This document shows positions 9,741-38,653 of a stretch of DNA of 44,622 nucleotides, in pieces. Source of the stretch: Kagunavirus BCH953P1; sequence record OZ035754.1; one strand, written 5' to 3'. The translations under genes were made by a program, and so were the position numbers. The notes beneath the pieces are model-generated. The model made no database searches. It saw only the letters and a program-made list of their open reading frames with translations, and was not told the origin of the DNA. The stretch's first letter is position 1, and each line of letters opens with the position of its first letter.

Positions 9741-10153
9741 TGGGCTACTTTGAGGACTTAACAAAAGCGTTCGATGTGCCGCTGGTAGCCTTCGGAACCA
9801 CCAACGGCATCAGGGTAGCGCTTGAAAATATCGACGCGCCGACGTCAACCGATACGCCGTATCTGGCAAGTTACATGTTGCTGGCGGATACGGAACAGGC
9901 TGACCTATTCTTCACCGAGCAACGCGCCGGTGTTTATCAGGTCGACATTAACTACGCATCGGTGAAAGGTAGCGCGCCAATCAATAAAATGGCAGACTTA
10001 CTCAACACGGCGTTTAAAGCAGGTAAGTCATTTTCACGTAACGACATCTGCGCCGAGGTTCAATCGGTTAGCCTGGGGCCGCTGATTGTAGAAAACGGAT
10101 GGGCCAAACGACCATTGTCAATTAACTTTATTGCATTCACCAAGAGGCTGTGA
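9737..10153 (+). CDS. putative tail terminator / tail completion protein
   Basis: 138 aa; directly upstream of the major tail gene; ATGA overlap. Confidence 0.45.
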   Translation: MMGYFEDLTKAFDVPLVAFGTTNGIRVALENIDAPTSTDTPYLASYMLLADTEQADLFFTEQRAGVYQVDINYASVKGSAPINKMADLLNTAFKAGKSFSRNDICAEVQSVSLGPLIVENGWAKRPLSINFIAFTKRL

Positions 10154-10155
10154 AT

Positions 10156-11322
10156 ATGGCTACAACTCCTTTTAAGGGCGCGAATACCGCGCAATTCTAT
10201 GTGGCGGAAACTACCCCGGGCGTAACACCGACTAACCCGGTCTGGTCGCCGTTGCGTAACACAGGCGGCGTCCCTGCTATTACCCGAGACACGCTGACAT
10301 CCAACGAACTGGACGGCAGCCGCGAAACTACATCCATCCGCACCGGTAACAAACAGGTTAGCGGAGAATACGCCATCGAGCTTAGTTCGAAAAGCCAGGA
10401 TGACTGGCTGGCAGGTGCCTTAGGCTCTGCGTGGCAATCAGGTGTATCCTTGACTGACCTGTCAATTACCGTCGCACCGGCGGGCAAGACGTTCACCCGT
10501 GCTGATGGCAGCTTTATTTCTGATGGCGTTGAAGTGGGCGACCTGATCGCGTTCACCGACTTAACGGGCGACAACGCTAAACCGTTCATCGTAACCGAGG
10601 TAAGTGCGACTGTTGTCACCGGCGCTGGTATCCAACATACTCTGACCACTGAGACAGTAACTACCGCCGCTAAGACCGGAGACAAACTGGAAACCGGTAG
10701 CCAGTGTAAGACGTTCTCTATCCTCACCTGGTACAAAGGACAGTGCGGCGGCGCCAGCGCATACACGTTGACCAAAGGCGTAGAAGTTTCTGGGTTCACA
10801 GTTGAACAGGCTGTTAATGCGATGGTAACAGGCAGCTTCCCGTTTATCGGGCGTACCCAGGAGATTCTTACCGAGCCACCGTCTGGCTCTGATTTCTCCT
10901 CTGTTATGTTCGAGGATGAGCCGTTCTCCTCTGTTGACGTTTCCGTGTTTGATGGCTCTACGCCGTTACGCTGTGATAGCCTGACCATCACCAACGATAA
11001 CAGCGCGTCCGCACAGTTCGAACTCGGCAACACTAACGTAGCGTTTGTGGAGCGTAGCCGCGCGGCTAATACCTTCTCCATCTCCGGTAAGCTGTACGAC
11101 ATGGCGATGATTCAGAAGTTTATCAACGAACAGCAGGTAGAGATTAACTCTATTCTGGCGGGGGTAAATGGGGCTATGTCTTTTAGTTTGAAACGTGCAG
11201 AACTTACAGCAGTCACACCAGAGATTGGCGGGCCCGAGTCAATCACTCAGAGCATAGAAGGCCAGGCTACGGGAAACCAGTACCAGTCGTCTATTGTTAT
11301 CCAGCGTATCACTTACGCATAA
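10156..11322 (+). CDS. major tail protein
   Basis: About 388 aa; SD AAGAGG 8 nt upstream of ATG 10156 (track ORF starts at GTG 10150); followed by strong terminator. Confidence 0.6.
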   Translation: MATTPFKGANTAQFYVAETTPGVTPTNPVWSPLRNTGGVPAITRDTLTSNELDGSRETTSIRTGNKQVSGEYAIELSSKSQDDWLAGALGSAWQSGVSLTDLSITVAPAGKTFTRADGSFISDGVEVGDLIAFTDLTGDNAKPFIVTEVSATVVTGAGIQHTLTTETVTTAAKTGDKLETGSQCKTFSILTWYKGQCGGASAYTLTKGVEVSGFTVEQAVNAMVTGSFPFIGRTQEILTEPPSGSDFSSVMFEDEPFSSVDVSVFDGSTPLRCDSLTITNDNSASAQFELGNTNVAFVERSRAANTFSISGKLYDMAMIQKFINEQQVEINSILAGVNGAMSFSLKRAELTAVTPEIGGPESITQSIEGQATGNQYQSSIVIQRITYA

Positions 11323-11326
11323 AACT

Positions 11327-11351
11327 AAGGCCCCTTTCGGGGCCTTTTTCT
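11327..11351. terminator. terminator hairpin between convergent genes (aggcccc-tttc-ggggcct then ttttc)
   Basis: Seen directly; separates the plus major tail gene from the minus-strand cassette. Confidence 0.6.
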
Positions 11352-11905
11352 TACAAACCTAATTTTAAAGCAATGTCTATAACGTTGGATTTAACGTCAC
11401 CCGGTATGATGTAGGTGTCGTAATCTTCTACACCATCAACGCCGTACAGATAACCGCGGCTGTCCCCCTCAAACGTATAGCCTTCTCGGTGCAAGCGAAC
11501 GATTCTTACATCATGACCCGCGGTGACGATAGGGGTTACTTCGCTGGAGAACCCGCCATCAGACACCACAAAAACTTCGTCGCCGTCGGGCAAGTTTCCG
11601 GCAAGATACTTACCGAAATAATCATCACCGAATACCGGTTTAATGAATTGCTCCGAAATGGCAATCATGAACTGACGACGGGACAACCCATTAAGAAAAC
11701 CCTCTGGCTTTTCTTTCCGCGCCCGGTCGTCGTAGCCGTCGAGAAATTCGTGGTAAGCATCCGGGCCTAACGCTGCCAGAGCAATATTGAACATTGGATT
11801 CTTGAAACTGGTAGTTCCTTTTGCAAAGCCCATTTCTACCAGCGCCATAGCAAGCGTGTCTTTCCCGCAACCCGCAGGGCCATTAAGAATAATTACCTTA
11901 GCCAT
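11351..11905 (-). CDS. P-loop deoxynucleoside monophosphate kinase-like protein
   Basis: 184 aa; N-terminal Walker A LNGPAGCGKDT resembles the T4 gp1 dNMP kinase P-loop. Confidence 0.55.
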   Translation of the reverse strand: MAKVIILNGPAGCGKDTLAMALVEMGFAKGTTSFKNPMFNIALAALGPDAYHEFLDGYDDRARKEKPEGFLNGLSRRQFMIAISEQFIKPVFGDDYFGKYLAGNLPDGDEVFVVSDGGFSSEVTPIVTAGHDVRIVRLHREGYTFEGDSRGYLYGVDGVEDYDTYIIPGDVKSNVIDIALKLGL

Positions 11906-12393
11906 TATTTATCGCTCCCGTGTGATTTTAAGTATGTAGAGTTCCCGTTACAGTCATATTCAGTGACCGCGTGTGTCGTGATTCCTAAGCCGCGGAAATG
12001 CTTTATTACCGCTGGAGAGTCGTCGAATGCGCACAAGATTCTCTCCAGCCCAATAGCACGCAACACCTCTTCTTTAATTACGATGTCTTTTCTGTTGTCG
12101 TGTTTGCTGCGCATTAACAGAACGTCGAACTTGACATTGTTTTTACGTAACCACTCGCGAGTTTCTTCCTCGGCGTCGTCGCTTCGCCCGGTAAGGATGA
12201 TTACGGTCATCCCGGTATGCCACAACGTGTTGCACAAGTGAATGTTGTCATATATCGGCGAATCATCTTTGCAGGCCATGTTAAAAGGCTTCCACGCCCA
12301 GGTTTCGCCGTAGTTATCTTTTGGCAGCAGGTGTAAGCGATGAGTTCCGTCGGCTAATGTTCCATCTAAATCGAAAATCACAATATCTTTCAT
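11905..12393 (-). CDS. HAD-superfamily phosphatase (nucleotidase / polynucleotide phosphatase-like)
   Basis: 162 aa; N-terminal DLDGTL HAD motif I; ATGA-type overlaps with both neighbours. Confidence 0.65.
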   Translation of the reverse strand: MKDIVIFDLDGTLADGTHRLHLLPKDNYGETWAWKPFNMACKDDSPIYDNIHLCNTLWHTGMTVIILTGRSDDAEEETREWLRKNNVKFDVLLMRSKHDNRKDIVIKEEVLRAIGLERILCAFDDSPAVIKHFRGLGITTHAVTEYDCNGNSTYLKSHGSDK

Positions 12394-13520
12394 CCCAGCA
12401 TCTCCGGTGAAATAGTTAAACGTGCGACCTCGCCATATTCGGCGCTATAAGTAATTACATTTGCACTACGGCCTGACATCCATCCGCCGCGAGAGGCGTA
12501 TGCGTCTTTAGCCGCTAAGGTGCGGTGTTGCTCAACAATCATGTTACGGCTTTCTACAATCTTTTGATGGTGCAGGTGGCCTACGTGGGCGTAGCTGTAA
12601 ACACTCTCGCCGAATGCTTTGCGGAACTTGGCAATCATAACCGGTTCGATAGCGTCGAAGCGTGCTTTATGTCCGTGATGGAAGAACAGCGTAGTTTTGC
12701 CGTGTTGTACCATCTTGTAAACATCCGGCGACGTATCGACAACCACTCGGCTGTCGTTCGAATATAAAACTGTGAACATTTCTGCCAGCCACACGGACCC
12801 TACAGGGTCGTGATTTCCTTGCACGATAAGCAAGCGAACGGTTTTATGTTTAACCAGCGCCATATCAACAACACGGCGCACCATACGAATCATGTAGCGG
12901 ACAAGTTTCTGGTAGCGAGTGTCCGCGTCCAACACATGACGTGACTCAGGAGTAACGGCATCCAGACTATCGAAGTGCGCGAAGTCGCCTAGCAGGTTAA
13001 TAACTCCCGTTCCTGCATCCGGTGCTTTCTGAAACGCCGCATCGAACCAACGGGAGAACAGGTCTTCCGCAATTTTCATGTCCCAGTCGTCGCCACTCTC
13101 GTCGGCCCATGCCAGCATACCGAGATGGAAATCAGATACCGTGTAAAGATTGAGTAGCTTGTCGTCGCGTTTAGCGCGAACGGCTTTAACAGGTGCAACG
13201 GGTGTAATCTCTGACTTCATGCCTTCAATTACGGCTTTCATCAACTCTATCTGACGTTCGGCGTCAGTATCGGTCTTAACCCATTGCAACTTAGTGTTGC
13301 CGAACTCGTCCACAAGTGACGACGTGCCTTTAATTTTGTAGCCGTCCGGGACAAGGTGGCTAACGTCGCGCCCGTGGCCTACGCCTTTCTTAGCCAGCTT
13401 CGCTTTACGGATGCGAATAACGCGGTCTGAGATGCCATATTTACGGGCTATATCGATAGTTTTAACTCCGGCGTTCAATTCTTCCTGTAACTGCTCGTCG
13501 GTTATTTTCTTCCGGGCCAT
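12390..13520 (-). CDS. HTH domain fused to calcineurin-like metallophosphoesterase
   Basis: 376 aa; N-terminal HTH-like segment (IARKYGISDRVIRIRK); phosphoesterase motifs GDFAH, GNHD, GHLH. Confidence 0.65.
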   Translation of the reverse strand: MARKKITDEQLQEELNAGVKTIDIARKYGISDRVIRIRKAKLAKKGVGHGRDVSHLVPDGYKIKGTSSLVDEFGNTKLQWVKTDTDAERQIELMKAVIEGMKSEITPVAPVKAVRAKRDDKLLNLYTVSDFHLGMLAWADESGDDWDMKIAEDLFSRWFDAAFQKAPDAGTGVINLLGDFAHFDSLDAVTPESRHVLDADTRYQKLVRYMIRMVRRVVDMALVKHKTVRLLIVQGNHDPVGSVWLAEMFTVLYSNDSRVVVDTSPDVYKMVQHGKTTLFFHHGHKARFDAIEPVMIAKFRKAFGESVYSYAHVGHLHHQKIVESRNMIVEQHRTLAAKDAYASRGGWMSGRSANVITYSAEYGEVARLTISPEMLG

Positions 13521-13558
13521 GCTTACTTCCTCGTGTTTAGGATTTGTCCTATGCTAGC

Positions 13559-13765
13559 TCACTTCTCGTTAACATTCGAGTTGCACGCCCAGATTAAAAT
13601 AAATACCCACGGCAGCAGAATCCAACCAAGAAACAGGTTGGCCATGAATATCGCTAACTTCGCTTTATGGTTACGGAAGTACGCAACCAGGAAAGGTGCG
13701 AAATAAGCGAGAAGTGCAAACAGAATTAAGGAAACCGGTAAACTTGACATTTTAAACCCCTTCAT
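13559..13765 (-). CDS. small membrane protein (two predicted TM helices)
   Basis: 68 aa hydrophobic ORF; first gene downstream of promoter P2. Confidence 0.5.
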   Translation of the reverse strand: MKGFKMSSLPVSLILFALLAYFAPFLVAYFRNHKAKLAIFMANLFLGWILLPWVFILIWACNSNVNEK

Positions 13766-13780
13766 TGTTGGTGTAAGTGA

Positions 13781-13809
13781 ATAGTACCCTATTATATTGG
13801 GGTGCGCAA
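13781..13809 (-). promoter_or_regulatory. sigma70-type promoter P2 (TTGCGC-N17-TACTAT), identical copy of P1
   Basis: Same about 33-nt sequence as at 4236..4264; precedes the minus-strand cassette 13765..11351. Confidence 0.6.
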
Positions 13810-13917
13810 GTAATGTGATAGAATAATTTTGCGCCTAGTGTCGCACACGAAAAGCGGGTGGTTCCCGTCTGGCGCATTTACCCTTAACCTGTAACCTCTT
13901 AACCAAAGGATTAAAGA

Positions 13918-14337
13918 ATGAAACTTTCTGATTTCTATTTCGAAGAGAAAGCACTGGTAGGCAAGAAGATGCCGATTCTGCTACCAAACGGCGAAGACTC
14001 CGGTGAGTGGCTTAATGTTGTAAGTCCGGATGCCGATGTCGCCGTTAAAGCGGGGCGTGCTTTCATTATCGCATACCGTCGCGGGCTGGCGCGTTTCGAA
14101 GAACTGGAAAAAGCTGCCAAAGAATCCGGCGACTATACTGAATATAACCTGGCGATTAATGAGCTAGCGGAAGACCTCAACCGGCAACTCGCGGCGGAAG
14201 TCGTAAACGGCTGGAGCTTCGACGACGAGCCTTTCTCTAAGGAAGCGTTTAACAAATTGCTCGACCAGTTTAAAGGGCTTGGAACCCAGGTAGCAGCGTT
14301 CCATAACGCTGAGCGCAAAGCATTACAGGAAAAGTAG
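13918..14337 (+). CDS. tail assembly chaperone (G-like)
   Basis: 139 aa immediately upstream of the tape measure gene; SD AAGGA. Confidence 0.55.
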   Translation: MKLSDFYFEEKALVGKKMPILLPNGEDSGEWLNVVSPDADVAVKAGRAFIIAYRRGLARFEELEKAAKESGDYTEYNLAINELAEDLNRQLAAEVVNGWSFDDEPFSKEAFNKLLDQFKGLGTQVAAFHNAERKALQEK

Positions 14338-14702
14338 ACGCGCTGTACAGGTTCGCCACCTACGAGTTCGTTGATAAGCATAAAATCAGAGAGTTTGATT
14401 CTATAGCTGACGGACACGAACAGGCGCTTATCGCGATGGGTGTAATCGATAAGAAAAAACGTGCAGCGCGACGGGGTGGGCCAGAATGCCCGCCCCTTTT
14501 TATATCCACCTTTGAGACGTACTGTGACATTAAGTTTACGCGACACGTGCGCGAGGACGCTGTAGTATTGTTTGCAAGAGAATCCGTTACGTGGCAAGAC
14601 CTGAAAGCCTATCTCGATGTTACGCAAAAACAGCTTAGCCTGTTCGAGATAGACATTATCATGGGCTTAGAAGCAATCTTTGAAGGTAGAAATCATGGCT
14701 GA
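14313..14702 (+). CDS. tail assembly chaperone -1 frame extension (T-like domain, expressed as a G-T fusion by programmed frameshift)
   Basis: The -1 frame is open from 14313 to 14702 and overlaps the last codons of the chaperone gene; A-AAG slippery context (GGAAAAG) at about 14328..14334; canonical position before tape measure. Confidence 0.5.
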   Translation, partial: AQSITGKVDALYRFATYEFVDKHKIREFDSIADGHEQALIAMGVIDKKKRAARRGGPECPPLFISTFETYCDIKFTRHVREDAVVLFARESVTWQDLKAYLDVTQKQLSLFEIDIIMGLEAIFEGRNHG

Positions 14703-16968
14703 TACCGCTAGCTTGATAGTACGAGTATCTTCGACCGGCGTCGATAAAACCACATCACAACTGAACGGGCTTACCAAAGCCGCAGGTGCCGCCGCGGCTG
14801 CCGTTGTCAGTCTGGAAACCGCTAAGCAGGTGTTCAGCGCGCTGGTGGACTCTCAGCGCAACTTCGATAAGCTGAACTCCGGCCTCATCACAATGACCGG
14901 TAGCGCTGAGAACGCGGCTAAGGCTTTCAGCGTCCTGCAACAGTTCGCAAAAGAAACCCCGTATGGTCTCAATCAGGCGGTAGAAGGTTTCACTAAGCTG
15001 GTTGCCCTAGGCCTGAACCCCAGCAAAGAGGCGTTAATCTCCTACGGCAATACCGCTGCCGCGATGGGTAAAGACCTTAATCAGATGATTGAGGCCGTAG
15101 CGGACGCCAGTACATTTGAGTTTGAACGACTAAAAGAGTTTGGCATCAAGTCGTCACAGCAGGCGGATACCGTTTCTTTCACGTTCCGCGGCGTAACAAC
15201 TACTGTCAAAAAGAACTCCGAAGAGATTCAGAAATACCTGCTAAACATCGGTAACACTGATTTCGCCGGGGCGATGGAGACGCGTTCGAAGACCTTAGAT
15301 GGTCAGTTATCCAGCCTGGCGGACTCTTTCGATGGCCTTGTTCTTGCGGTAGCGCAATCCGGTTTTGGCGATGCCGTAGGTGAGCAGGCCGCGATGGCAG
15401 AAGACGCAGTAACGGCGCTTACCGACGCCATCGCGTCTAATGAGATAGCTGCCACACTCCAGGACTGGGCGACGCTGTTCAATGAGTCGTTCAAGTTTAT
15501 TTCTGACGCCTTGAATGACCTGGCATACGACACCGAGGACAAATCCGCAGACATGTCTGACTCGCTGGGGACTATACCGGATGCTATCCGTGAGTGGTTG
15601 CCTGAGATTCAAAGAATAGCGAAGGATATGTATGTAGAGTTCCAGGCTATTGACATGCAAGCGGCGCTTCTGGCGCAGTCTATTAAAGCCGCCTTCACCC
15701 CAGGTGAAACGGCGGCGGGTACATTTGCCGCGGGTCAGGCCGCCGTTCAGTTCTTCAAAGACACTGAAAAGGCGAAAAACAAGGCTGAGGCGGACGGGAT
15801 AACCCAACGCTCGAAGCAGCGTAAGAAAGAAATTGAGGAACAGCGCAAGCAGTACGACGAGCGCAAGAAGCAAGAAATTGACTTAGCCAGCCTTGTTAAT
15901 AAAAAAGGTGGAACTGGCGGCACCGGTAACGCCGACGATAAAGCGGCAAAAGCAGCCGCTAAGAAAGCTGAGCAATTGCGAAATCAGGCGCAGGATTACC
16001 TCGACACTTTGGCCCGTCAGAACAACGACGAGTTAAAGGCTATTGACGCGCAGGAACAGCAGAAACTGGCTAAAGCAAAAGAGTTCTACAGCCAGGGTGC
16101 GTTGTCTCTGAAAGAATACGAACAAGCTAAAACAGCTATCGTCCTCGAAGCCGGACAAAAACGGCAAGATGAACTGGATAAACGCCAGAAAGAAGCCCTG
16201 GAAAAGCAGCAGAAAGGTGACGACTTCATGGCCCAGATTATGGGCCAGAACGCTACTGAGCTTGAGCTTCTCGACATCCAGGAACAGCAGAAACTGGCGG
16301 TAGCCGATAAGTACCGGGAGCAAGGGCTTATTAGCGAGAAGCAGTATCAGGCCGCGCTTAACGCCATCAACGAGCAATATGCCACCAAGCGCGCCGACGC
16401 AACGGCAACCGCCTTCGGTAACATGGCCTCAAACATCGGGTCTGCGTTGGGGGAGGCTTCCGGTGCGTATAAGGCATTCGCTATCGTACAGGCCACTATC
16501 GCCACGTACACCGCAGCTATTGAGGCGTACAAGTCAACGGCTGCTATCCCTGTTGTTGGCCCGTTCCTTGCCCCTGTAGCCGCTGCCGCTGCCGTTGGGG
16601 CGGGTATGGCGCAGGTTTCCGCTATCAGGTCTGCGCGTGAGCAGGGGGGCCAGTTATCCGCGGGGCAGGCTTCCACCATCGCCGAACGCGGTAAACCCGA
16701 AGTTATCATGCCCGCTGGCGCATCGCGTGTGCGCACCGCGCAGCAGATGAAAGAAATTATGGGGCAAAACGGGTCTTCTTCCGGACCATCTAATGTTACT
16801 ATCGTAAACAACACGAGTTCTCAAATCGGCAATGTATCCACCGAACAGGATGATGAGGGCCGTCTGCGTATCATCATAGAAGAGCAAGTTGCTGCATCTT
16901 TGCAGAACAGCAACAGTAAGATTAGCAAGGCCCGCAAGGCCACAAGAAATGCGCCGGGGTTTAAATAA
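14680..16968 (+). CDS. tail tape measure protein
   Basis: 762 aa, coiled-coil rich with internal repeats and hydrophobic C-terminal segment; follows chaperones. Confidence 0.85.
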   Translation: MKVEIMADTASLIVRVSSTGVDKTTSQLNGLTKAAGAAAAAVVSLETAKQVFSALVDSQRNFDKLNSGLITMTGSAENAAKAFSVLQQFAKETPYGLNQAVEGFTKLVALGLNPSKEALISYGNTAAAMGKDLNQMIEAVADASTFEFERLKEFGIKSSQQADTVSFTFRGVTTTVKKNSEEIQKYLLNIGNTDFAGAMETRSKTLDGQLSSLADSFDGLVLAVAQSGFGDAVGEQAAMAEDAVTALTDAIASNEIAATLQDWATLFNESFKFISDALNDLAYDTEDKSADMSDSLGTIPDAIREWLPEIQRIAKDMYVEFQAIDMQAALLAQSIKAAFTPGETAAGTFAAGQAAVQFFKDTEKAKNKAEADGITQRSKQRKKEIEEQRKQYDERKKQEIDLASLVNKKGGTGGTGNADDKAAKAAAKKAEQLRNQAQDYLDTLARQNNDELKAIDAQEQQKLAKAKEFYSQGALSLKEYEQAKTAIVLEAGQKRQDELDKRQKEALEKQQKGDDFMAQIMGQNATELELLDIQEQQKLAVADKYREQGLISEKQYQAALNAINEQYATKRADATATAFGNMASNIGSALGEASGAYKAFAIVQATIATYTAAIEAYKSTAAIPVVGPFLAPVAAAAAVGAGMAQVSAIRSAREQGGQLSAGQASTIAERGKPEVIMPAGASRVRTAQQMKEIMGQNGSSSGPSNVTIVNNTSSQIGNVSTEQDDEGRLRIIIEEQVAASLQNSNSKISKARKATRNAPGFK

Positions 16969-35573: not shown

Positions 35574-35631
35574 ATTGTATATTCCTTCAGCAAGTAATTT
35601 GGCCTCGGCGCTCTAACGTCGGGGCTTTCTT

Positions 35632-35865
35632 TTATTCCAGGTCTTCTAAAGTAGCGGCCATTCCGCGAACTTCAGCAACAGCACTATATTTCCCACCAAC
35701 ATTTTTCACGACACCAGATTTAACCAGCACCTTCAACGACCCTTCAATAATGGCGGAACTATAGTACCTAAAATAACTACGGCGCAAGTCGATAACGCTG
35801 CACGACCCTTTTTTACGTGTTAACGAAACGACTGCCGTGAATACGCGTGACTGGAACTCGGTCAT
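35632..35865 (-). CDS. hypothetical protein (77 aa)
   Basis: Track ORF; C-terminus ends EDLE like two other proteins in this block. Confidence 0.5.
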   Translation of the reverse strand: MTEFQSRVFTAVVSLTRKKGSCSVIDLRRSYFRYYSSAIIEGSLKVLVKSGVVKNVGGKYSAVAEVRGMAATLEDLE

Positions 35866-36032
35866 TTCACATTCTCCTTAATCCACGCTTCCACTTTCTC
35901 CGGGTCAAACGTACCCGGCTGACGGCGGCCCATAATGCGGATACAACAATCCGGGAACTTCCCGCTCTTTAGCCAGTTATTCAGTGTGCGACGAGTAACC
36001 CCGATACGCTCGGCTACTTCATTCTGTGTCAT
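35862..36032 (-). CDS. small HTH DNA-binding protein (AlpA/excisionase-like fold), probable early regulator
   Basis: HTH MTQNEVAERIGVTRRTLNNW; start taken at internal ATG 36032 because the predicted promoter P9 lies at 36066..36093 (track ORF extends to 36065). Confidence 0.5.
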   Translation of the reverse strand: MTQNEVAERIGVTRRTLNNWLKSGKFPDCCIRIMGRRQPGTFDPEKVEAWIKENVK

Positions 36033-36065
36033 TCTCAAACCCTCAGTATCAGTTAACGAAACCAA

Positions 36066-36093
36066 GTATACATTGCGAATAATGGGAAATCAA
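36066..36093 (-). promoter_or_regulatory. candidate sigma70 promoter P9 (TTGATT-N16/17-TATACT) for the minus-strand replication operon
   Basis: Read on minus strand; moderate match. Confidence 0.35.
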
Positions 36094-36182
36094 ACATAAT
36101 CGCACCTATTGACATTATGAAAATCTTCGTTTAAGGTGCTTCTATATCTTAGTTACTTTGATTCCTGTTCACCTTGTAAGAA

Positions 36183-36216
36183 TGTTTAACCCGTGCGTCA
36201 AGCAAAGGGTTAAACA
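36183..36216. promoter_or_regulatory. inverted repeat tgtttaaccc / gggttaaaca (10-bp arms, 14-nt spacer) in the early control region
   Basis: Seen directly. Confidence 0.4.
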
Positions 36217-36370
36217 CAGGCTTACTGAACACGAGAATTATCATAACTTTCCTTCCTTAGTATCTCCGGTTGCCCTGGGCAAGCTATATTCTCATCAACG
36301 GCATATCTCTTAAGTATCTGATTTTCTTAATGTGCCGTAGATTCGCAACCGTAAAAATGTAACCCTTACC

Positions 36371-36394
36371 GGGCGGGCTTAAGGCCCGCCCTTT
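36371..36394 (+). terminator. GC-rich hairpin gggcgggc-ttaag-gcccgccc followed by TTT
   Basis: Seen directly, in intergenic region upstream of P6. Confidence 0.4.
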
Positions 36395-36464
36395 AGTTAC
36401 AAAGTAATAAGAATAAAGGCACGACCCTGCCTGAAGAATCACAACGGCAACGTAACTATTCTCT

Positions 36465-36493
36465 TGCACACCCCAACATAATAGGATACTATT
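36465..36493 (+). promoter_or_regulatory. sigma70-type promoter P6 (TTGCAC-N17-TACTAT), B-family
   Basis: TTGCACACCCCAACATAATAGGATACTAT; near-identical to P1/P2; 25 nt upstream of the first plus-strand early gene. Confidence 0.6.
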
Positions 36494-36517
36494 CACTTAT
36501 CGTAACGAGACAGAGGA

Positions 36518-36712
36518 GTGAGGGTTATGTTTAAGAAGGGTCAGTTGGTGAAGATTTTGGAGACCGGAGAGTTAGCGGTTATCTCATTTATGCACCACAG
36601 AGAATATGAGGTCTATTTTGCTAAATCTTTAACGGAGTCCTATCTCACCGTGCTATACGCGCAAGATATGAAACTCATCGGCAACAATTTTAAATTCAAA
36701 GGGGCGAAGTGA
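36518..36712 (+). CDS. hypothetical early protein (64 aa)
   Basis: Track ORF; SD GGAGTGAGGG. Confidence 0.5.
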   Translation: MRVMFKKGQLVKILETGELAVISFMHHREYEVYFAKSLTESYLTVLYAQDMKLIGNNFKFKGAK

Positions 36713-36912
36713 TGGAAGAATTATTTGAGGAACTGAAACATCATGAGTTCGAGGAGATATATTTTGTAGCTGGACGCTACGAGGCGCATTTAGTGGACGG
36801 GATTACACTTATTACGGTGGATAGCCTGCAAATGTTAAATAGCTTACGTGCGCTACGAACGGCATCGAATCATGATGCTCGTGCCGACGACTCTGAGGGA
36901 GGTTGCCGTTGA
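36712..36912 (+). CDS. hypothetical early protein (66 aa)
   Basis: Track ORF 36709..36912, start set at ATG overlapping upstream stop. Confidence 0.45.
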   Translation: MEELFEELKHHEFEEIYFVAGRYEAHLVDGITLITVDSLQMLNSLRALRTASNHDARADDSEGGCR

Positions 36913-37169
36913 TGAATAATACTGAACTGAAAACAGTAGCGGAATATAACCGTAAAATACGGGTCATGCGTCGTGGTGCGGGGCTGGAGCAGTTCTATAA
37001 CATGTGGCGCATTGCGACGCGCGACCCTGAGTTTCTTCAGACAGGTTATTATTCCATTAAAGGCATTATCCCGATTCGTGCACGTAAGGATTATGGTTGG
37101 GTTCGTGAGACCCCTAATCTTTTGTGGTGCTGGTATTGTGGTGAATTCTGGGTAAGGGTTAAGGACTGA
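36912..37169 (+). CDS. hypothetical early protein (85 aa)
   Basis: Track ORF 36903..37169, start set at ATG in TGATG overlap. Confidence 0.45.
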   Translation: MNNTELKTVAEYNRKIRVMRRGAGLEQFYNMWRIATRDPEFLQTGYYSIKGIIPIRARKDYGWVRETPNLLWCWYCGEFWVRVKD

Positions 37170-37240
37170 GTTATGAATAATTACCCGTTTATTTTAATCG
37201 TCAGCGTCGTTTATGTGGCGCACGTGTTGTGGGGTTTGGT

Positions 37241-37441
37241 ATGAGCAAGTGGATTAAGTGTAGTGAGCGGATGCCGCGCTGCGAGCCGGGTAGGTGGTCA
37301 AAAGATGTTATTGCACTAAGTGATACTGGGGAGGTGTTTCGTCTGGCCTGTCAAGGTGAATACTGGCAAAGAACGTCAGCGTTCGTTGAATCAGGTTCAG
37401 AAAAAGTGGTTGCATGGATGCCGTTCCCTGATGAGGACTAA
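37241..37441 (+). CDS. DUF551-like protein (copy 1)
   Basis: MSKWIKCSERMP...W..WMPFP pattern typical of the DUF551 phage family; paralog at 37592..37777. Confidence 0.55.
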   Translation: MSKWIKCSERMPRCEPGRWSKDVIALSDTGEVFRLACQGEYWQRTSAFVESGSEKVVAWMPFPDED

Positions 37442-37444
37442 GTT

Positions 37445-37588
37445 ATGAGAGAAGCATTTGAACGGTGGGCCGTCATCGAGGGTCTGCCGGTCAACAAGGG
37501 TTCAAAGAAAGAGTACCTGAACGTTAAGACCCGTCTCGCGTGGCGGGCGTGGAGAGCTGGTGTGCAAGCGGTTATGGACCGGGGGTGA
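37445..37588 (+). CDS. hypothetical small protein (47 aa)
   Basis: Read from sequence, fills the gap between the two DUF551 genes. Confidence 0.3.
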   Translation: MREAFERWAVIEGLPVNKGSKKEYLNVKTRLAWRAWRAGVQAVMDRG

Positions 37589-37591
37589 GAT

Positions 37592-37777
37592 ATGGGCGAG
37601 TGGATTATGTGTAGTGAACGGATGCCGGAGCCTTATGAATACGTTCTTGTAACTGATTGTTTTGTTGGCTGTGAGGTTATGCGTGTTAATTCAGATGGCT
37701 ACTGGGGGCCCGCAAAGAGTTTATATCACGGTGATATCACCCACTGGATGCCATTACCGGAGCCGCCAGAAGCGTGA
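37592..37777 (+). CDS. DUF551-like protein (copy 2)
   Basis: EWIMCSERMPEPYEYVLV...HWMPLPEPP. Confidence 0.55.
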   Translation: MGEWIMCSERMPEPYEYVLVTDCFVGCEVMRVNSDGYWGPAKSLYHGDITHWMPLPEPPEA

Positions 37778-37818
37778 TGTTATATTGTAACAATAGCTTG
37801 GGATTTTACTGAGTGACT

Positions 37819-37840
37819 TACGCTGCTGTGCAGCAGCGTA
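37819..37840. repeat. near-perfect palindrome TACGCTGCTG-tg-CAGCAGCGTA
   Basis: 10-bp perfect arms seen directly in a 227-bp intergenic region. Confidence 0.6.
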
Positions 37841-37944
37841 CAACTTTAACTTAGTGTCGTCAAAAGGTGACACTTTTCACCAAACGCAACAATCGAGGCG
37901 ACTATTGCAGGAGATGCAACAATACAAACACCAATAAAATTTAC

Positions 37945-37973
37945 TTGCACACTGAGATAGAATAGGCTACTGT
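37945..37973 (+). promoter_or_regulatory. sigma70-type promoter P7 (TTGCAC-N17-TACTGT), B-family
   Basis: TTGCACACTGAGATAGAATAGGCTACTGT followed by TCATTTACAC as in the other B-family copies. Confidence 0.5.
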
Positions 37974-38004
37974 TCATTTACACAAACGAGAGGAGAGATA
38001 GAAG

Positions 38005-38154
38005 ATGGTTACTTTGATGGTTATGGAGTTTGAAAACAGCGTAGCAACTTACCGTGAGATGACTATGGTGCAGGCGTATCACCTGGCATCAAACGGCAAC
38101 TTCTACAAGGCTCAAATCATCAACGAGTTCGGGGTAATTGACTATGAATTTTAA
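38005..38154 (+). CDS. hypothetical small protein (49 aa)
   Basis: Read from sequence; SD GAGGAGAG. Confidence 0.35.
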   Translation: MVTLMVMEFENSVATYREMTMVQAYHLASNGNFYKAQIINEFGVIDYEF

Positions 38155-38416
38155 CAGCTACACCGTTACCGTTGATTTTGAGGGGCTGGAGTTGCCCCTC
38201 CCCAACAACTACCGATATGTCACGCGCGACCGTAACGGGTTTATCCAGGGGTGGAGGAACAAACCGACAGATACTGAGTTCGGGATGTCGGGCGGCGAAG
38301 AGTTGCCGATCACTTTCGGGCATCAGAGTAGCAACGAAGAGCTTAAAACTGTGATTCGTAAGTATCGCCGCCGCGGTAACACTGGGCTTATAGCAATAAC
38401 AGGTGCTGTTGAATAG
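38144..38416 (+). CDS. hypothetical protein (90 aa)
   Basis: Track ORF 38138..38416; start at ATG 38144. Confidence 0.5.
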   Translation: MNFNSYTVTVDFEGLELPLPNNYRYVTRDRNGFIQGWRNKPTDTEFGMSGGEELPITFGHQSSNEELKTVIRKYRRRGNTGLIAITGAVE

Positions 38417-38434
38417 ACGAGAGGAGAGACAGAG

Positions 38435-38653
38435 ATGTTCCTGGAATGTAAATCCTATGATGGATATTGGGCGCTGACTAAAAATGACTTATACCACCTA
38501 AAAGAGGACGGCGACGAGAGCCGCTGCTACGTAATAGACGACAACGGCACTGAACTTGATGTCTATTACACCGGTTATGGCCGATGGGCGCTATCCGCTG
38601 ACGATGACTTTGTGTTCGAAGAATATAACGGAGAGGAATCAGAAGATGAGTAA
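38435..38653 (+). CDS. hypothetical small acidic protein (72 aa)
   Basis: Track ORF; SD GAGGAGAG; acidic C-terminus EESEDE. Confidence 0.5.
   Translation: MFLECKSYDGYWALTKNDLYHLKEDGDESRCYVIDDNGTELDVYYTGYGRWALSADDDFVFEEYNGEESEDE

Follow-up and report, generated by a model that had tools for sequence, protein, structure and literature searches.

What does the protein encoded at positions 12390 to 13520, on the minus strand, of Kagunavirus BCH953P1 (record OZ035754.1, the 44,622 nucleotides of which we call the window) do for its phage? The open reading frame has exactly these limits, opens with ATG at 13520 and encodes 376 residues; a Shine-Dalgarno-like GAGGAAG, read directly from the sequence, lies 5 nt upstream of the start codon (13526 to 13532, minus strand). 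The first-pass annotation had described the product as a DNA-binding helix-turn-helix (HTH) domain fused to a calcineurin-like metallophosphoesterase (MPE), and had suggested either a nuclease or phosphatase directed at host DNA or a phosphodiesterase that degrades the signalling nucleotides of host defense systems. The domain call was right: the protein carries the catalytic motifs, it matches the phrog_704 profile over its full length (E = 3.8e-162, residues 4–375 on profile positions 2–389 of 390), and members of this family match HTH profiles. General-purpose searches returned far less. Pfam Metallophos_2 (E = 1.1e-4, 22.6 bits against a gathering cut-off of 27) and Metallophos (E = 7e-3, 17.2 bits against 21.5) both scored below threshold, a PDB sequence search with the protein found nothing useful (best E = 0.34), the NCBIfam search gave no meaningful match, and the family profile itself found in the PDB only marginal matches, to GerE, SbcD and Mre11. 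The sub-threshold Pfam scores reflect divergence and not absence, and are overridden by the motif and fold tests. The frame thus encodes an HTH fused to an intact Mre11/DP1-like metallophosphoesterase, and the evidence for this is far above chance.

The N-terminal part of the protein is built of three segments, all, like the core that follows, on the minus strand. Residues 8–44 (13389 to 13499) form a tri-helical HTH with helices at 8–16, 21–28 and 32–44 in the predicted models, which bears out the DNA-binding domain of about 45 residues proposed earlier. The N-terminus of the protein itself has diverged too far for a significant Pfam match (GerE at E = 0.24, nothing at E ≤ 0.01), and the evidence from profiles comes from the N-termini of aligned homologs, which match HTH_1 in 13 of 40 cases, Sigma70_r4_2 in 8 of 40 (best E = 2e-10) and GerE in 5 of 40 (best E = 5e-9). 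The domain is of the LuxR/GerE, sigma region 4 and resolvase type, and it is strongly basic, with a pI of 10.3 as compared with 6.4 for the MPE core. It is followed by a flexible linker (residues 45–60; 13341 to 13388), where pLDDT drops to 66–74 and neither model has secondary structure, and then by a module, supported by the models and by conservation, that is specific to this family: a beta-hairpin (61–85) and a helix (87–104; together 13209 to 13340) with the consensus KGxSTL...QWVK, in which G74 and W80 are at least 90% conserved. The fold search gave no separate match for this module, which is kept even in the HTH-less homolog of Campylobacter phage CP81. The only architectural variation within PHROG 704 lies in the HTH domains, which are lost in CP81-type members and duplicated in others, the longer members adding further copies; at least 109 residues precede motif I in all 140 representatives.

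Those 140 representatives, 32–48% identical to the Kagunavirus protein, also define the active site. The binuclear MPE core occupies residues 119–376 (12393 to 13166) and has the beta-sandwich fold and all five calcineurin-like motifs of the superfamily. Motif I, D130-F-H132 (13125 to 13133), supplies metal ligands; motif II, G178-D179-F-A-H182-F-D184 (12969 to 12989), supplies the bridging Asp in the GDxxH form; motif III is G235-N236-H237-D238 (12807 to 12818); motif IV is H282 (12675 to 12677) within FFHHGHK; and motif V is G314-H315-L-H317 (12570 to 12581). D130, H132, G178, D179, N236, H237, H282, G314 and H317 are invariant, and at least 90% of the aligned sequences share H182, D184, G235, D238 and H315. 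All three parts of the signature read from the sequence at the outset, GDxxH, GNHD and GHxH, are therefore present (GDFAH at 178–182, GNHD at 235–238, GHLH at 314–317), and the metal-binding residues hold up on careful alignment. A conserved insert peculiar to the family, with T190, P191, L197, D198, D200 and R202, follows motif II. The lambda-type PPP phosphatases such as lambda NinI have GDxxDRG and GNHE where this protein has GDFAHFD and GNHD, which places it outside that group.

Comparisons of fold point to a nuclease. The nearest neighbors of the core are PolD DP1, Mre11 and SbcD, and nucleases rank above diesterases in both fold searches. Together with the GDxxH form of motif II and a family architecture that varies only by loss or gain of HTH domains, this makes a DNA-targeted nuclease the best supported of the activities suggested at first, the activity itself being a prediction. 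The other suggestion, that the enzyme hydrolyzes cyclic (oligo)nucleotides or other nucleotides that serve as second messengers in CBASS, Pycsar, Thoeris or type III CRISPR defense, fared poorly and we regard it as extremely improbable: in addition to the fold rankings, a PADLOC search gave no match, the genes found around the MPE across lineages belong to DNA metabolism, and it is hard to see what a conserved and at times duplicated DNA-binding domain would do for an enzyme with a small soluble substrate. Moreover, the phage enzymes Acb1 and Apyc1, which do degrade such signals, have other folds.

The relationship to these nucleases is one of fold and motifs. The nuclease domains of Mre11 and SbcD, whose phage examples include T4 gp47 and T5 D13, are only 12–17% identical to ours in sequence. 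They work with an SMC ATPase partner, Rad50 or SbcC, for which there is no candidate in the window or in the annotation of the related phage K1G, and they carry a C-terminal capping domain and Rad50-binding helices, whereas the present protein ends with its core at residue 376 and has its additional modules at the N-terminus. Archaeal PolD DP1, a 3'-5' proofreading exonuclease, is a structural neighbor and not a family member: it is 12% identical and has an OB-fold and a DP2 partner, neither of which is found here. A parallel for a stand-alone enzyme of the MPE superfamily, as we propose the PHROG 704 protein to be, is the Lhr-associated MPE of Pseudomonas putida, described in PMC7826289 as a Mn2+-dependent ssDNA endonuclease that needs no Rad50.

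The gene is the second of a cassette that runs against the surrounding late tail genes. The cassette begins with a superinfection immunity (Imm) membrane protein (13559 to 13765, minus strand; Pfam Imm_superinfect, E = 1.6e-12; phrog_1039) and continues beyond the MPE with a 162-residue HAD phosphatase (11905 to 12393, minus strand; Pfam HAD_PNKP, E = 2.9e-20; phrog_415, E = 1.1e-66) and a 184-residue P-loop protein resembling dNMP kinases (11351 to 11905, minus strand; phrog_139, E = 4.1e-43). The start of the HAD gene overlaps the stop of the MPE gene as ATGA, and that of the kinase gene overlaps the HAD stop as TAATG; the three genes are translationally coupled in one operon with imm. A GC-rich hairpin (11327 to 11346), found by a terminator scan and in the sequence, forms a bidirectional terminator where the kinase and tail-tube genes converge. 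Upstream of the cassette a consensus scan identified a sigma-70 promoter-like site, ATCACA-17-TATAAT (13791 to 13819, minus strand; 10 of 12 matches), the number of such sites in the region being not significantly above the shuffled expectation.

No convincing operator-like repeats or palindromes lie upstream of the cassette. This bears on the idea that the protein is mainly a transcription factor, with the HTH recognizing specific sequences for autoregulation of the cassette or for an early/late switch and the MPE serving as an accessory or sensor domain, by analogy with NadR and BirA. HTH domains of this type are typical of transcription factors, some NCBI copies are named "winged helix-turn-helix domain-containing protein", and no part of the protein evolves faster than the HTH (20% identity as compared with 44% for the core), which would fit an operator that differs from phage to phage. 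However, the catalytic residues are invariant and the HTH is not, so that selection acts mainly on catalysis. The existence of CP81-type members and a genomic position that varies by lineage, with no conserved target operon, likewise argue against a regulator, and we consider this explanation very unlikely.

The company of the HAD phosphatase and the kinase can be read in two ways. The HAD protein belongs to the same PHROG as Dmp of phage T5 (E = 3.6e-57 for Dmp), a dNMP 5'-phosphatase, and PHROG 139 also contains T1 ST62 and Arno160 orf29; these assignments suggest nucleotide salvage. Alternatively, MPE, 3'-phosphatase and kinase could make up an end-healing set like that of T4 Pnkp or of Clostridium thermocellum Pnkp, the latter of which uses an MPE domain for this purpose. 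The MPE would then remove 2',3'-cyclic or 3'-phosphate ends, or make 3'-phosphate breaks for its neighbors to heal, for example in the repair of tRNA or DNA damaged by host defense nucleases. The HAD_PNKP match, the PDB matches of the HAD protein to Pnkp1 and the T4 PNK phosphatase domain, and the coupling of the three genes are in keeping with this, as is the mixture of 3'-PO4 and 3'-OH ends that PMC7826289 reports for the P. putida enzyme. Against it stand the dNMP-kinase type of the phrog_139 protein, the presence of the mononucleotide phosphatase Dmp in the best-matching PHROG of the HAD, a motif II that is GDFAHFD and not GDxxDRG, an HTH that points to duplex DNA and not to RNA ends, the lack of an annotated ligase in the closely related K1G genome, and the fact that the three genes occur together in Kagunavirus only. 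End healing is, in our view, quite unlikely.

That last point also weakens the argument from co-location on which a salvage or recycling module had originally been proposed, since the linkage of HAD and kinase to the MPE is confined to Kagunavirus. In K1G and in one Jersey-like phage imm again precedes the MPE; the Jersey-like relatives have HNH and Ant genes where Kagunavirus has HAD and kinase. In T1 some 35 kb separate the MPE gene from those for the HAD protein and the kinase, FritzSarasin, Vibrio phage 1.106.O, RcBigEagle and CP81 have neither nearby, and prophage copies occur in nin-like regions.

A likeness to the pre-early functions of T5 had also been suggested. T5 A1, a predicted metallo-phosphatase, is essential and sufficient for digestion of the host chromosome, works with the separate DNA-binding protein A2, and is also needed for the two-step DNA transfer of T5, which has no counterpart in Kagunavirus. 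The same five motifs occur in A1 in the same order and with similar spacing, and the NHDxxxSxWL context of motif III is common to both proteins and to Bxb1 gp47. A1 differs in its length (556 residues), in its N-terminal half and in its PHROG (1745), for which the PHROG search gave no match with our protein, and T5 A2 has no detectable sequence similarity to the HTH that is fused to the enzyme here. We considered whether the protein belongs to the A1 family, by hhalign on single sequences, by hmmsearch and with a profile of 10 A1 sequences, and did not keep this assignment. The match is local: aligning 140 PHROG 704 sequences with 10 A1 sequences by hhalign covered 39 columns around motif III only, at 40% probability (E = 2.9e-4). 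The resemblance in motif order and the HAD protein's place in Dmp's PHROG stand, and we retain A1 as an analogy and claim no specific homology.

A second precedent is the mycobacteriophage MPE Gp48 of A10ZJ24, which breaks down genomic DNA both in vivo and in vitro. Its family, phrog_221 (cluster A, including Bxb1 gp47 and L5 gp54), has a member in Arno160 that adjoins a phrog_139 dNMP kinase and so mirrors the arrangement in Kagunavirus. These are compact proteins of about 255 residues, with motif I at D10 and neither HTH nor hairpin module; Bxb1 gp47 doubles as a directionality factor for a serine integrase (PMC11795197), a role of which our protein shows no sign. In hhalign comparisons with the PHROG 704 family, Bxb1 gp47 reached 7% (over motifs III–V) and Arno160 orf28 0.1%. 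A chain from phrog_704 through phrog_221 to phrog_1745 by way of these two proteins was also rejected, with all probabilities at or below 7%, and we claim no specific clade. As judged from sequence, the likeness to T5 A1 and to Gp48 and gp47 appears to be at the level of the superfamily only.

PHROG 704, which that database labels "DNA repair exonuclease", has homologs in 2,042 phage records and in prophages. Its members include T1 ST16 (E = 7e-155), TLS gene 66 and CP81 gp149 (E = 2e-102). The gene follows the helicase and dam genes in T1 and TLS, genes for SSB and an RNase H-like protein in Vibrio phage 1.106.O, and those for a 5'-3' exonuclease and a primase-helicase in contig L051; in CP81 it lies near RusA. 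Among integrated prophages, one of them in a complete Dyella chromosome, copies occur in nin-like regions beside NinG/Rap, RusA, Q and a PDDEXK nuclease. Neighbors such as NinG, RusA and Q are seen more typically with recombination functions than with functions that destroy the host. Several prophage loci have salvage enzymes no more than two genes away from the MPE (nucleoside 2-deoxyribosyltransferase and nucleotide kinase twice each, DNMK once). A conserved partner is not apparent: BLAST clustering of five neighbors on either side in 28 bacterial-genome loci yielded only one small endolysin-like cluster, and no Pfam or PHROG family recurred among the two nearest genes per side in more than 3 of 111 proteins. 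A homing endonuclease, which the combination of HTH and nuclease and the NUMOD1 matches of 2 of 40 members might suggest, was rejected in view of the fixed syntenic position of the gene across entire phage subfamilies.

These settings bring in a strong rival to host-DNA breakdown, namely that the same HTH-tethered nuclease acts on phage DNA. Its substrates would be ends, hairpins, flaps or stalled or branched intermediates, or it would edit 3' ends, in the service of recombination-dependent replication or concatemer maturation. Most lineages place the gene within or at the end of the replication and recombination block, temperate prophages carry it, the labels "DNA repair exonuclease" and "proof-reading exonuclease" carry this sense, and the nearest folds function in end processing (Mre11/SbcD) and 3'-5' editing (DP1). 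PMC11795197 cites Savinov 2012 for the finding that replication of phage DNA requires the analogous Bxb1 gp47. However, no Rad50/SbcC-like or polymerase partner is encoded nearby, and, going by the K1G annotation, this phage already has genes of its own elsewhere for an exonuclease, a Holliday-junction resolvase and a DNA polymerase. In the Guernseyvirinae the gene lies outside the replication block, in a moron-like cassette with imm and, here, with nucleotide enzymes, and the T1-like phages encode no polymerase for which the enzyme could proofread (PMC11447400). We regard this role as possible, though on balance unlikely.

We favor a model, tentatively and with somewhat less than even confidence, in which the protein is a stand-alone, HTH-tethered, metal-dependent DNA nuclease whose main role is to break down the host chromosome and feed nucleotide salvage. 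Host-DNA breakdown and salvage are preferred because the gene shares its operon with the HAD phosphatase and the dNMP-kinase-like protein; an active site that is complete and invariant in 140 relatives, a genuine HTH, the phage precedents of A1 and Gp48 and the salvage enzymes near some prophage copies are consistent with them. We envision a scenario in which the cassette is transcribed from its own promoter, opposite to the late tail genes and presumably early in infection. The basic HTH would tether the protein to duplex DNA, with the flexible linker joining it to the hairpin-helix module and the Mre11/DP1-like core, and the core would hydrolyze DNA phosphodiester bonds with a metal that is probably Mn2+ or Mg2+. 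Breakdown of the chromosome would shut off the expression of host and defense genes and release dNMPs for use by the nucleotide enzymes of the cassette and by the phage replisome. The protein would then be a functional counterpart, in one polypeptide, of T5 A1 plus A2, and of mycobacteriophage Gp48. No mechanism that would spare the phage's own DNA is evident, and our literature search found no report of host-DNA degradation in Kagunavirus.

T1 and TLS do degrade the host genome and reuse its nucleotides, and as of 2024 the responsible gene had not been identified (PMC11447400). PHROG 704 could be the enzyme that destroys the host chromosome in infections by T1-type and related virulent siphoviruses, as a one-polypeptide equivalent of A1 and A2, a generalization that we consider doubtful. 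We found no source in the literature that maps the T1 mutants in which degradation of host DNA is impaired. Such mutants show higher transduction (Roberts and Drexler 1981, as cited in PMC11447400), and for that reason a host-DNA nuclease in this family would matter for the risk of transduction.

PHROG 704 genes occur in more than 2,000 sequenced phages, and many of these are candidates for use in therapy (Kagunavirus, Drexlerviridae, Jersey-like phages and Webervirus). If its members attack host DNA, they would answer the question that was explicitly raised in 2024 for T1 and TLS and account for nucleotide supply and host shut-off in the phages that carry them. A common HTH-guided takeover nuclease would then be shared by thousands of phages that infect Escherichia, Klebsiella, Salmonella, Vibrio and Campylobacter, and its loss should raise generalized transduction and weaken host shut-off and defense evasion. 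If the role is instead in replication or recombination, the family would represent an Mre11-like nuclease in which Rad50 has been replaced by a simple HTH tether. PHROG 704 is an ordinary, widely annotated family to which one testable hypothesis is attached. Our literature search found no biochemical or genetic study of any member, and the family has at least six different names in the databases, none with an experimental basis. In one public record (P0104), a homolog 94% identical to the Kagunavirus protein is named after the P. putida MPE.

The metallophosphoesterase (MPE) gene occupies 12390-13520 on the minus strand and encodes a protein of 376 aa from an ATG start preceded by a GAGGAAG ribosome-binding site, exactly the reading frame proposed in the first-pass annotation. 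The protein matches calcineurin-like phosphoesterases in Pfam only below the gathering thresholds (Metallophos_2, E 1e-4; Metallophos, E 7e-3) and PHROG 704 over its full length (E 3.8e-162). We aligned it with 139 representatives of 50%-identity clusters that are 32-48% identical to it. Across these 140 sequences the metal ligands D130, H132, D179, N236, H282 and H317 are invariant, as are H237, G178 and G314, and H182, D184, G235, D238 and H315 are at least 90% conserved. With the ligand positions invariant, the alignment rules out a loss of the metal-binding residues, and the earlier assignment of a metallophosphoesterase stands. In fold comparisons the protein scored highest with the PolD DP1 proofreading exonuclease (16.0), followed by Mre11 (15.0), SbcD (14.9), LpxH (13.8), further Mre11 entries and the small phosphodiesterases MJ0936 and YfcE (about 13), GpdQ (12.6), Rv0805 (12.0), the P. 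putida MPE (9.4) and the phosphoprotein phosphatase PP5 (9.1-9.3); Foldseek gave a result in agreement. By this ranking nucleases are its nearest neighbors, by a modest margin. We consider it probable that the MPE is some kind of DNA nuclease and highly improbable that it serves as a signaling phosphodiesterase.

Three helices (residues 8-16, 21-28 and 32-44) form the N terminus in the model of the entire protein and again when residues 1-118 are modeled alone (pLDDT 88.4), and in both they are followed by a low-confidence linker (45-60), a beta-hairpin (61-85) and a helix (87-104). The helix-turn-helix (HTH) of the window protein is itself too diverged for a Pfam match. The aligned N-termini of homologs match HTH_1 (13 of 40), Sigma70_r4_2 (8 of 40, best 2e-10), GerE (5 of 40, best 5e-9) and numerous further HTH families, and a PDB search with the family profile returned GerE at E 0.017. 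The HTH segment is basic (pI 10.3) and is the least conserved region, with 20% identity to the window protein compared with 44% for the core. All 140 representatives have at least 109 residues before motif I. The homolog from Campylobacter phage CP81 lacks the HTH and retains the hairpin-helix, and a second HTH is present in unusually long family members. This pattern makes the HTH a modular tether to DNA and the hairpin-helix part of the catalytic unit. That the protein acts instead as a regulator is a quite improbable reading.

The sequence itself is not new, as near-identical copies are already annotated by the hundred, and neither the superfamily nor the fold is unusual. The distinctive feature is the architecture: a core resembling Mre11 and DP1 that lacks a Rad50, DP2 or OB partner is joined to an HTH and to a hairpin-helix module specific to the family. 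In membership tests the window protein fell outside the Mre11/SbcD, PolD DP1 and phrog_221 families, and its match to the T5 A1 family is only local. The family is very abundant: tblastn found the protein in 2,042 of 50,697 phage records (with at least 80% of its length covered in 1,960), including phages of Escherichia, Klebsiella, Salmonella, Vibrio, Campylobacter and Rhodobacter, and an exhaustive HMMER search returned 4,562 clusters (50% identity) at E <= 1e-3 and 1,128 at E <= 1e-30. When a single peptide pattern was run against bacterial genomes, one per species, it matched 29 loci, among them a complete Dyella chromosome and scaffolds of megabase scale from Stutzerimonas, Bordetella and Pseudomonas, indicating that temperate prophages carry the family too. 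Database names range over "DNA repair exonuclease" (the annotation of the K1G ortholog, ORF20, gp22), "metallophosphoesterase", "calcineurin-like phosphoesterase", "DNA polymerase II small subunit", "winged helix-turn-helix domain-containing protein", "Nuclease MPE" and "hypothetical protein", and the 2024 reannotation of phage TLS named its copy (gene 66) "proof-reading exonuclease". A literature search found no experimental study of any family member.

The window amounts to an essentially complete genome of a Kagunavirus (Guernseyvirinae). Over positions 11000-14500 it shares 99.9% identity with Kagunavirus BCH953P1 and about 90% with K1G and K1ind1-3. Here the MPE gene is the second of four minus-strand genes lying between plus-strand genes for the tail tube (10150-11322) and the tail assembly chaperone (13918-14337). 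A predicted sigma-70-like promoter (13791-13819) is followed by imm, for superinfection immunity (13559-13765), the MPE gene, a HAD phosphatase gene (11905-12393), a gene for a P-loop dNMP-kinase-like protein (11351-11905) and a bidirectional hairpin terminator (11327-11346). The MPE-HAD and HAD-kinase junctions overlap as ATGA and TAATG, respectively, which implies translational coupling. The whole cassette (11327-13819), which has a promoter-like site and a terminator of its own, sits reversed among the late tail genes. Throughout Guernseyvirinae it begins with imm and MPE, and the cargo downstream of these varies: HAD and kinase in the window and K1G, and HNH, a hypothetical gene and Ant, in that order, in a Jersey-like Salmonella phage.

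Searches with the HAD protein hit HAD_PNKP in Pfam, as well as the phosphatase domains of Pnkp1 and T4 PNK. Its best PHROG, 415 (E 1e-66), also contains the dNMP 5'-phosphatase Dmp of T5 (E 4e-57; L006:124-858), and direct BLASTP similarity to Dmp is limited to the DxDGT motif region (E 8e-4). Since it matches both PNKP-type phosphatases and the Dmp PHROG, its sequence is compatible with either mononucleotides or 3'-phosphate ends as substrate; a role of the MPE in end-healing is improbable. The routine label "polynucleotide kinase" is misleading because the HAD protein has no kinase domain.

The first-pass annotation read the proximity of HAD and kinase as favoring a salvage or host-DNA-recycling module. 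A context of DNA and nucleotide metabolism is borne out, but a conserved salvage operon is not, the linkage being absent in other lineages. The K1G record notes that ORF18 and ORF19 resemble T1 and Era103 genes and that only ORF20 resembles SETP3 as well. In T1, the genes for HAD (ST64) and kinase (ST62, phrog_139) are grouped in the early left arm, about 35 kb from the MPE gene (ST16), which is between dam and holin; the TLS gene is placed as in T1. Neither HAD nor kinase is near the MPE gene in FritzSarasin, Vibrio phage 1.106.O, RcBigEagle or CP81, where the neighbors are a helicase and Dam, SSB and an RNase H-like gene, lysis genes, or RusA. A DNA methyltransferase lies within a few genes of the HTH-MPE in several unrelated phages, Dam-like in T1 (L053:39024-41955), TLS (L086:2656-5756) and FritzSarasin (L002:2432-5116), and a divergently transcribed methylase in RcBigEagle (L004:3971-6841). 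Among 28 bacterial-genome loci no neighbor family recurs in more than three. Their annotated neighbors are HNH endonucleases, NinG/Rap, RusA, antiterminator Q, endolysins, a methylase and a PDDEXK nuclease, and also nucleotide-salvage enzymes, namely two nucleoside 2-deoxyribosyltransferases, two nucleotide kinases and one DNMK. This context is of the lambdoid nin-region type; prophage copies, such as that on the Dyella halodurans chromosome, lie beside NinG/Rap, RusA, antiterminator Q and endolysin. The nin region of phage lambda contains an MPE of another kind, the protein phosphatase NinI. The robust inference is one of DNA and nucleotide metabolism with no obligate partner. The main alternative to host-DNA degradation, that the nuclease works on phage replication or recombination intermediates, is favored by the location of the gene in replication blocks or nin-like regions, by the presence of the family in prophages and by the reported need for Bxb1 gp47 in phage DNA replication (Savinov 2012, as cited in PMC11795197); we regard it as possible but rather unlikely.

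Host-DNA degradation is the role we tentatively favor in this phage, on the precedents of T5 and Gp48, the operon, a predicted promoter of its own opposed to the late genes, and the statement that T1 and TLS degrade the host genome and reuse its nucleotides (PMC11447400). T5 A1, described as a predicted metallo-phosphatase and encoded near dmp, is reported to be essential and sufficient for host-chromosome digestion and has the DNA-binding protein A2 as partner. Its five MPE motifs (303-306, 339-343, 395-398, 476-478 and 500-503) succeed one another as in the window protein, with which it also shares the motif III context NHDxxxSxWL, but it belongs to a different PHROG, and profile-profile comparison gives only a local match (39 columns, 40% probability). 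Gp48 of mycobacteriophage A10ZJ24, a compact MPE active as both a phosphodiesterase and a DNase, degrades host genomic DNA and is needed to kill M. tuberculosis. The cluster A MPE alignment in the Gp48 paper includes Bxb1 gp47, a member of phrog_221; this family resembles ours at the superfamily level only, and the neighbors given for the cluster A MPE resemble the set obtained here. In the T7-like podovirus Arno160 of Pectobacterium (L054:3958-5591) a phrog_221 MPE gene directly overlaps the start of a phrog_139 dNMP kinase gene. Operon partnership with one kinase family has therefore arisen independently in two MPE families, which lends modest support to a functional link between nuclease and dNMP kinase. 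Given the architecture, active site and contexts shown above, we infer a scenario in which the HTH would tether the protein to duplex DNA, and the flexibly linked core, binding two metal ions through D130, H132, D179, N236, H282, H315 and H317 and using H237 as catalytic histidine, would hydrolyze phosphodiester bonds of DNA; the co-translated HAD phosphatase and kinase would then act on mononucleotides released from host DNA. The family offers a directly testable candidate for the T1-type host-DNA nuclease.

The whole window yielded no tRNA genes, Rfam families at the gathering score or tandem repeats, and no terminal direct repeat, though it exceeds OZ035805, a relative of 99.9% identity, by 521 bases. 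The region of about 35600-38450 contains no ORF of at least 90 aa besides 38138-38416 at its right edge. Small plus-strand ORFs run from about 36500, and the region coincides with a minus-to-plus switch in gene strand and a GC-skew reversal (-0.07 to +0.15); a divergent early promoter or an origin, together with small early genes, is its probable content. The K1G annotation shows a matching gap (36452-38611). After the chaperone ORF, an overlapping plus-strand ORF in another frame (14436-14702) lies just upstream of the tape-measure gene (14680-16968). The two chaperone ORFs probably represent the usual programmed frameshift, since K1G joins the equivalent two pieces in one CDS.
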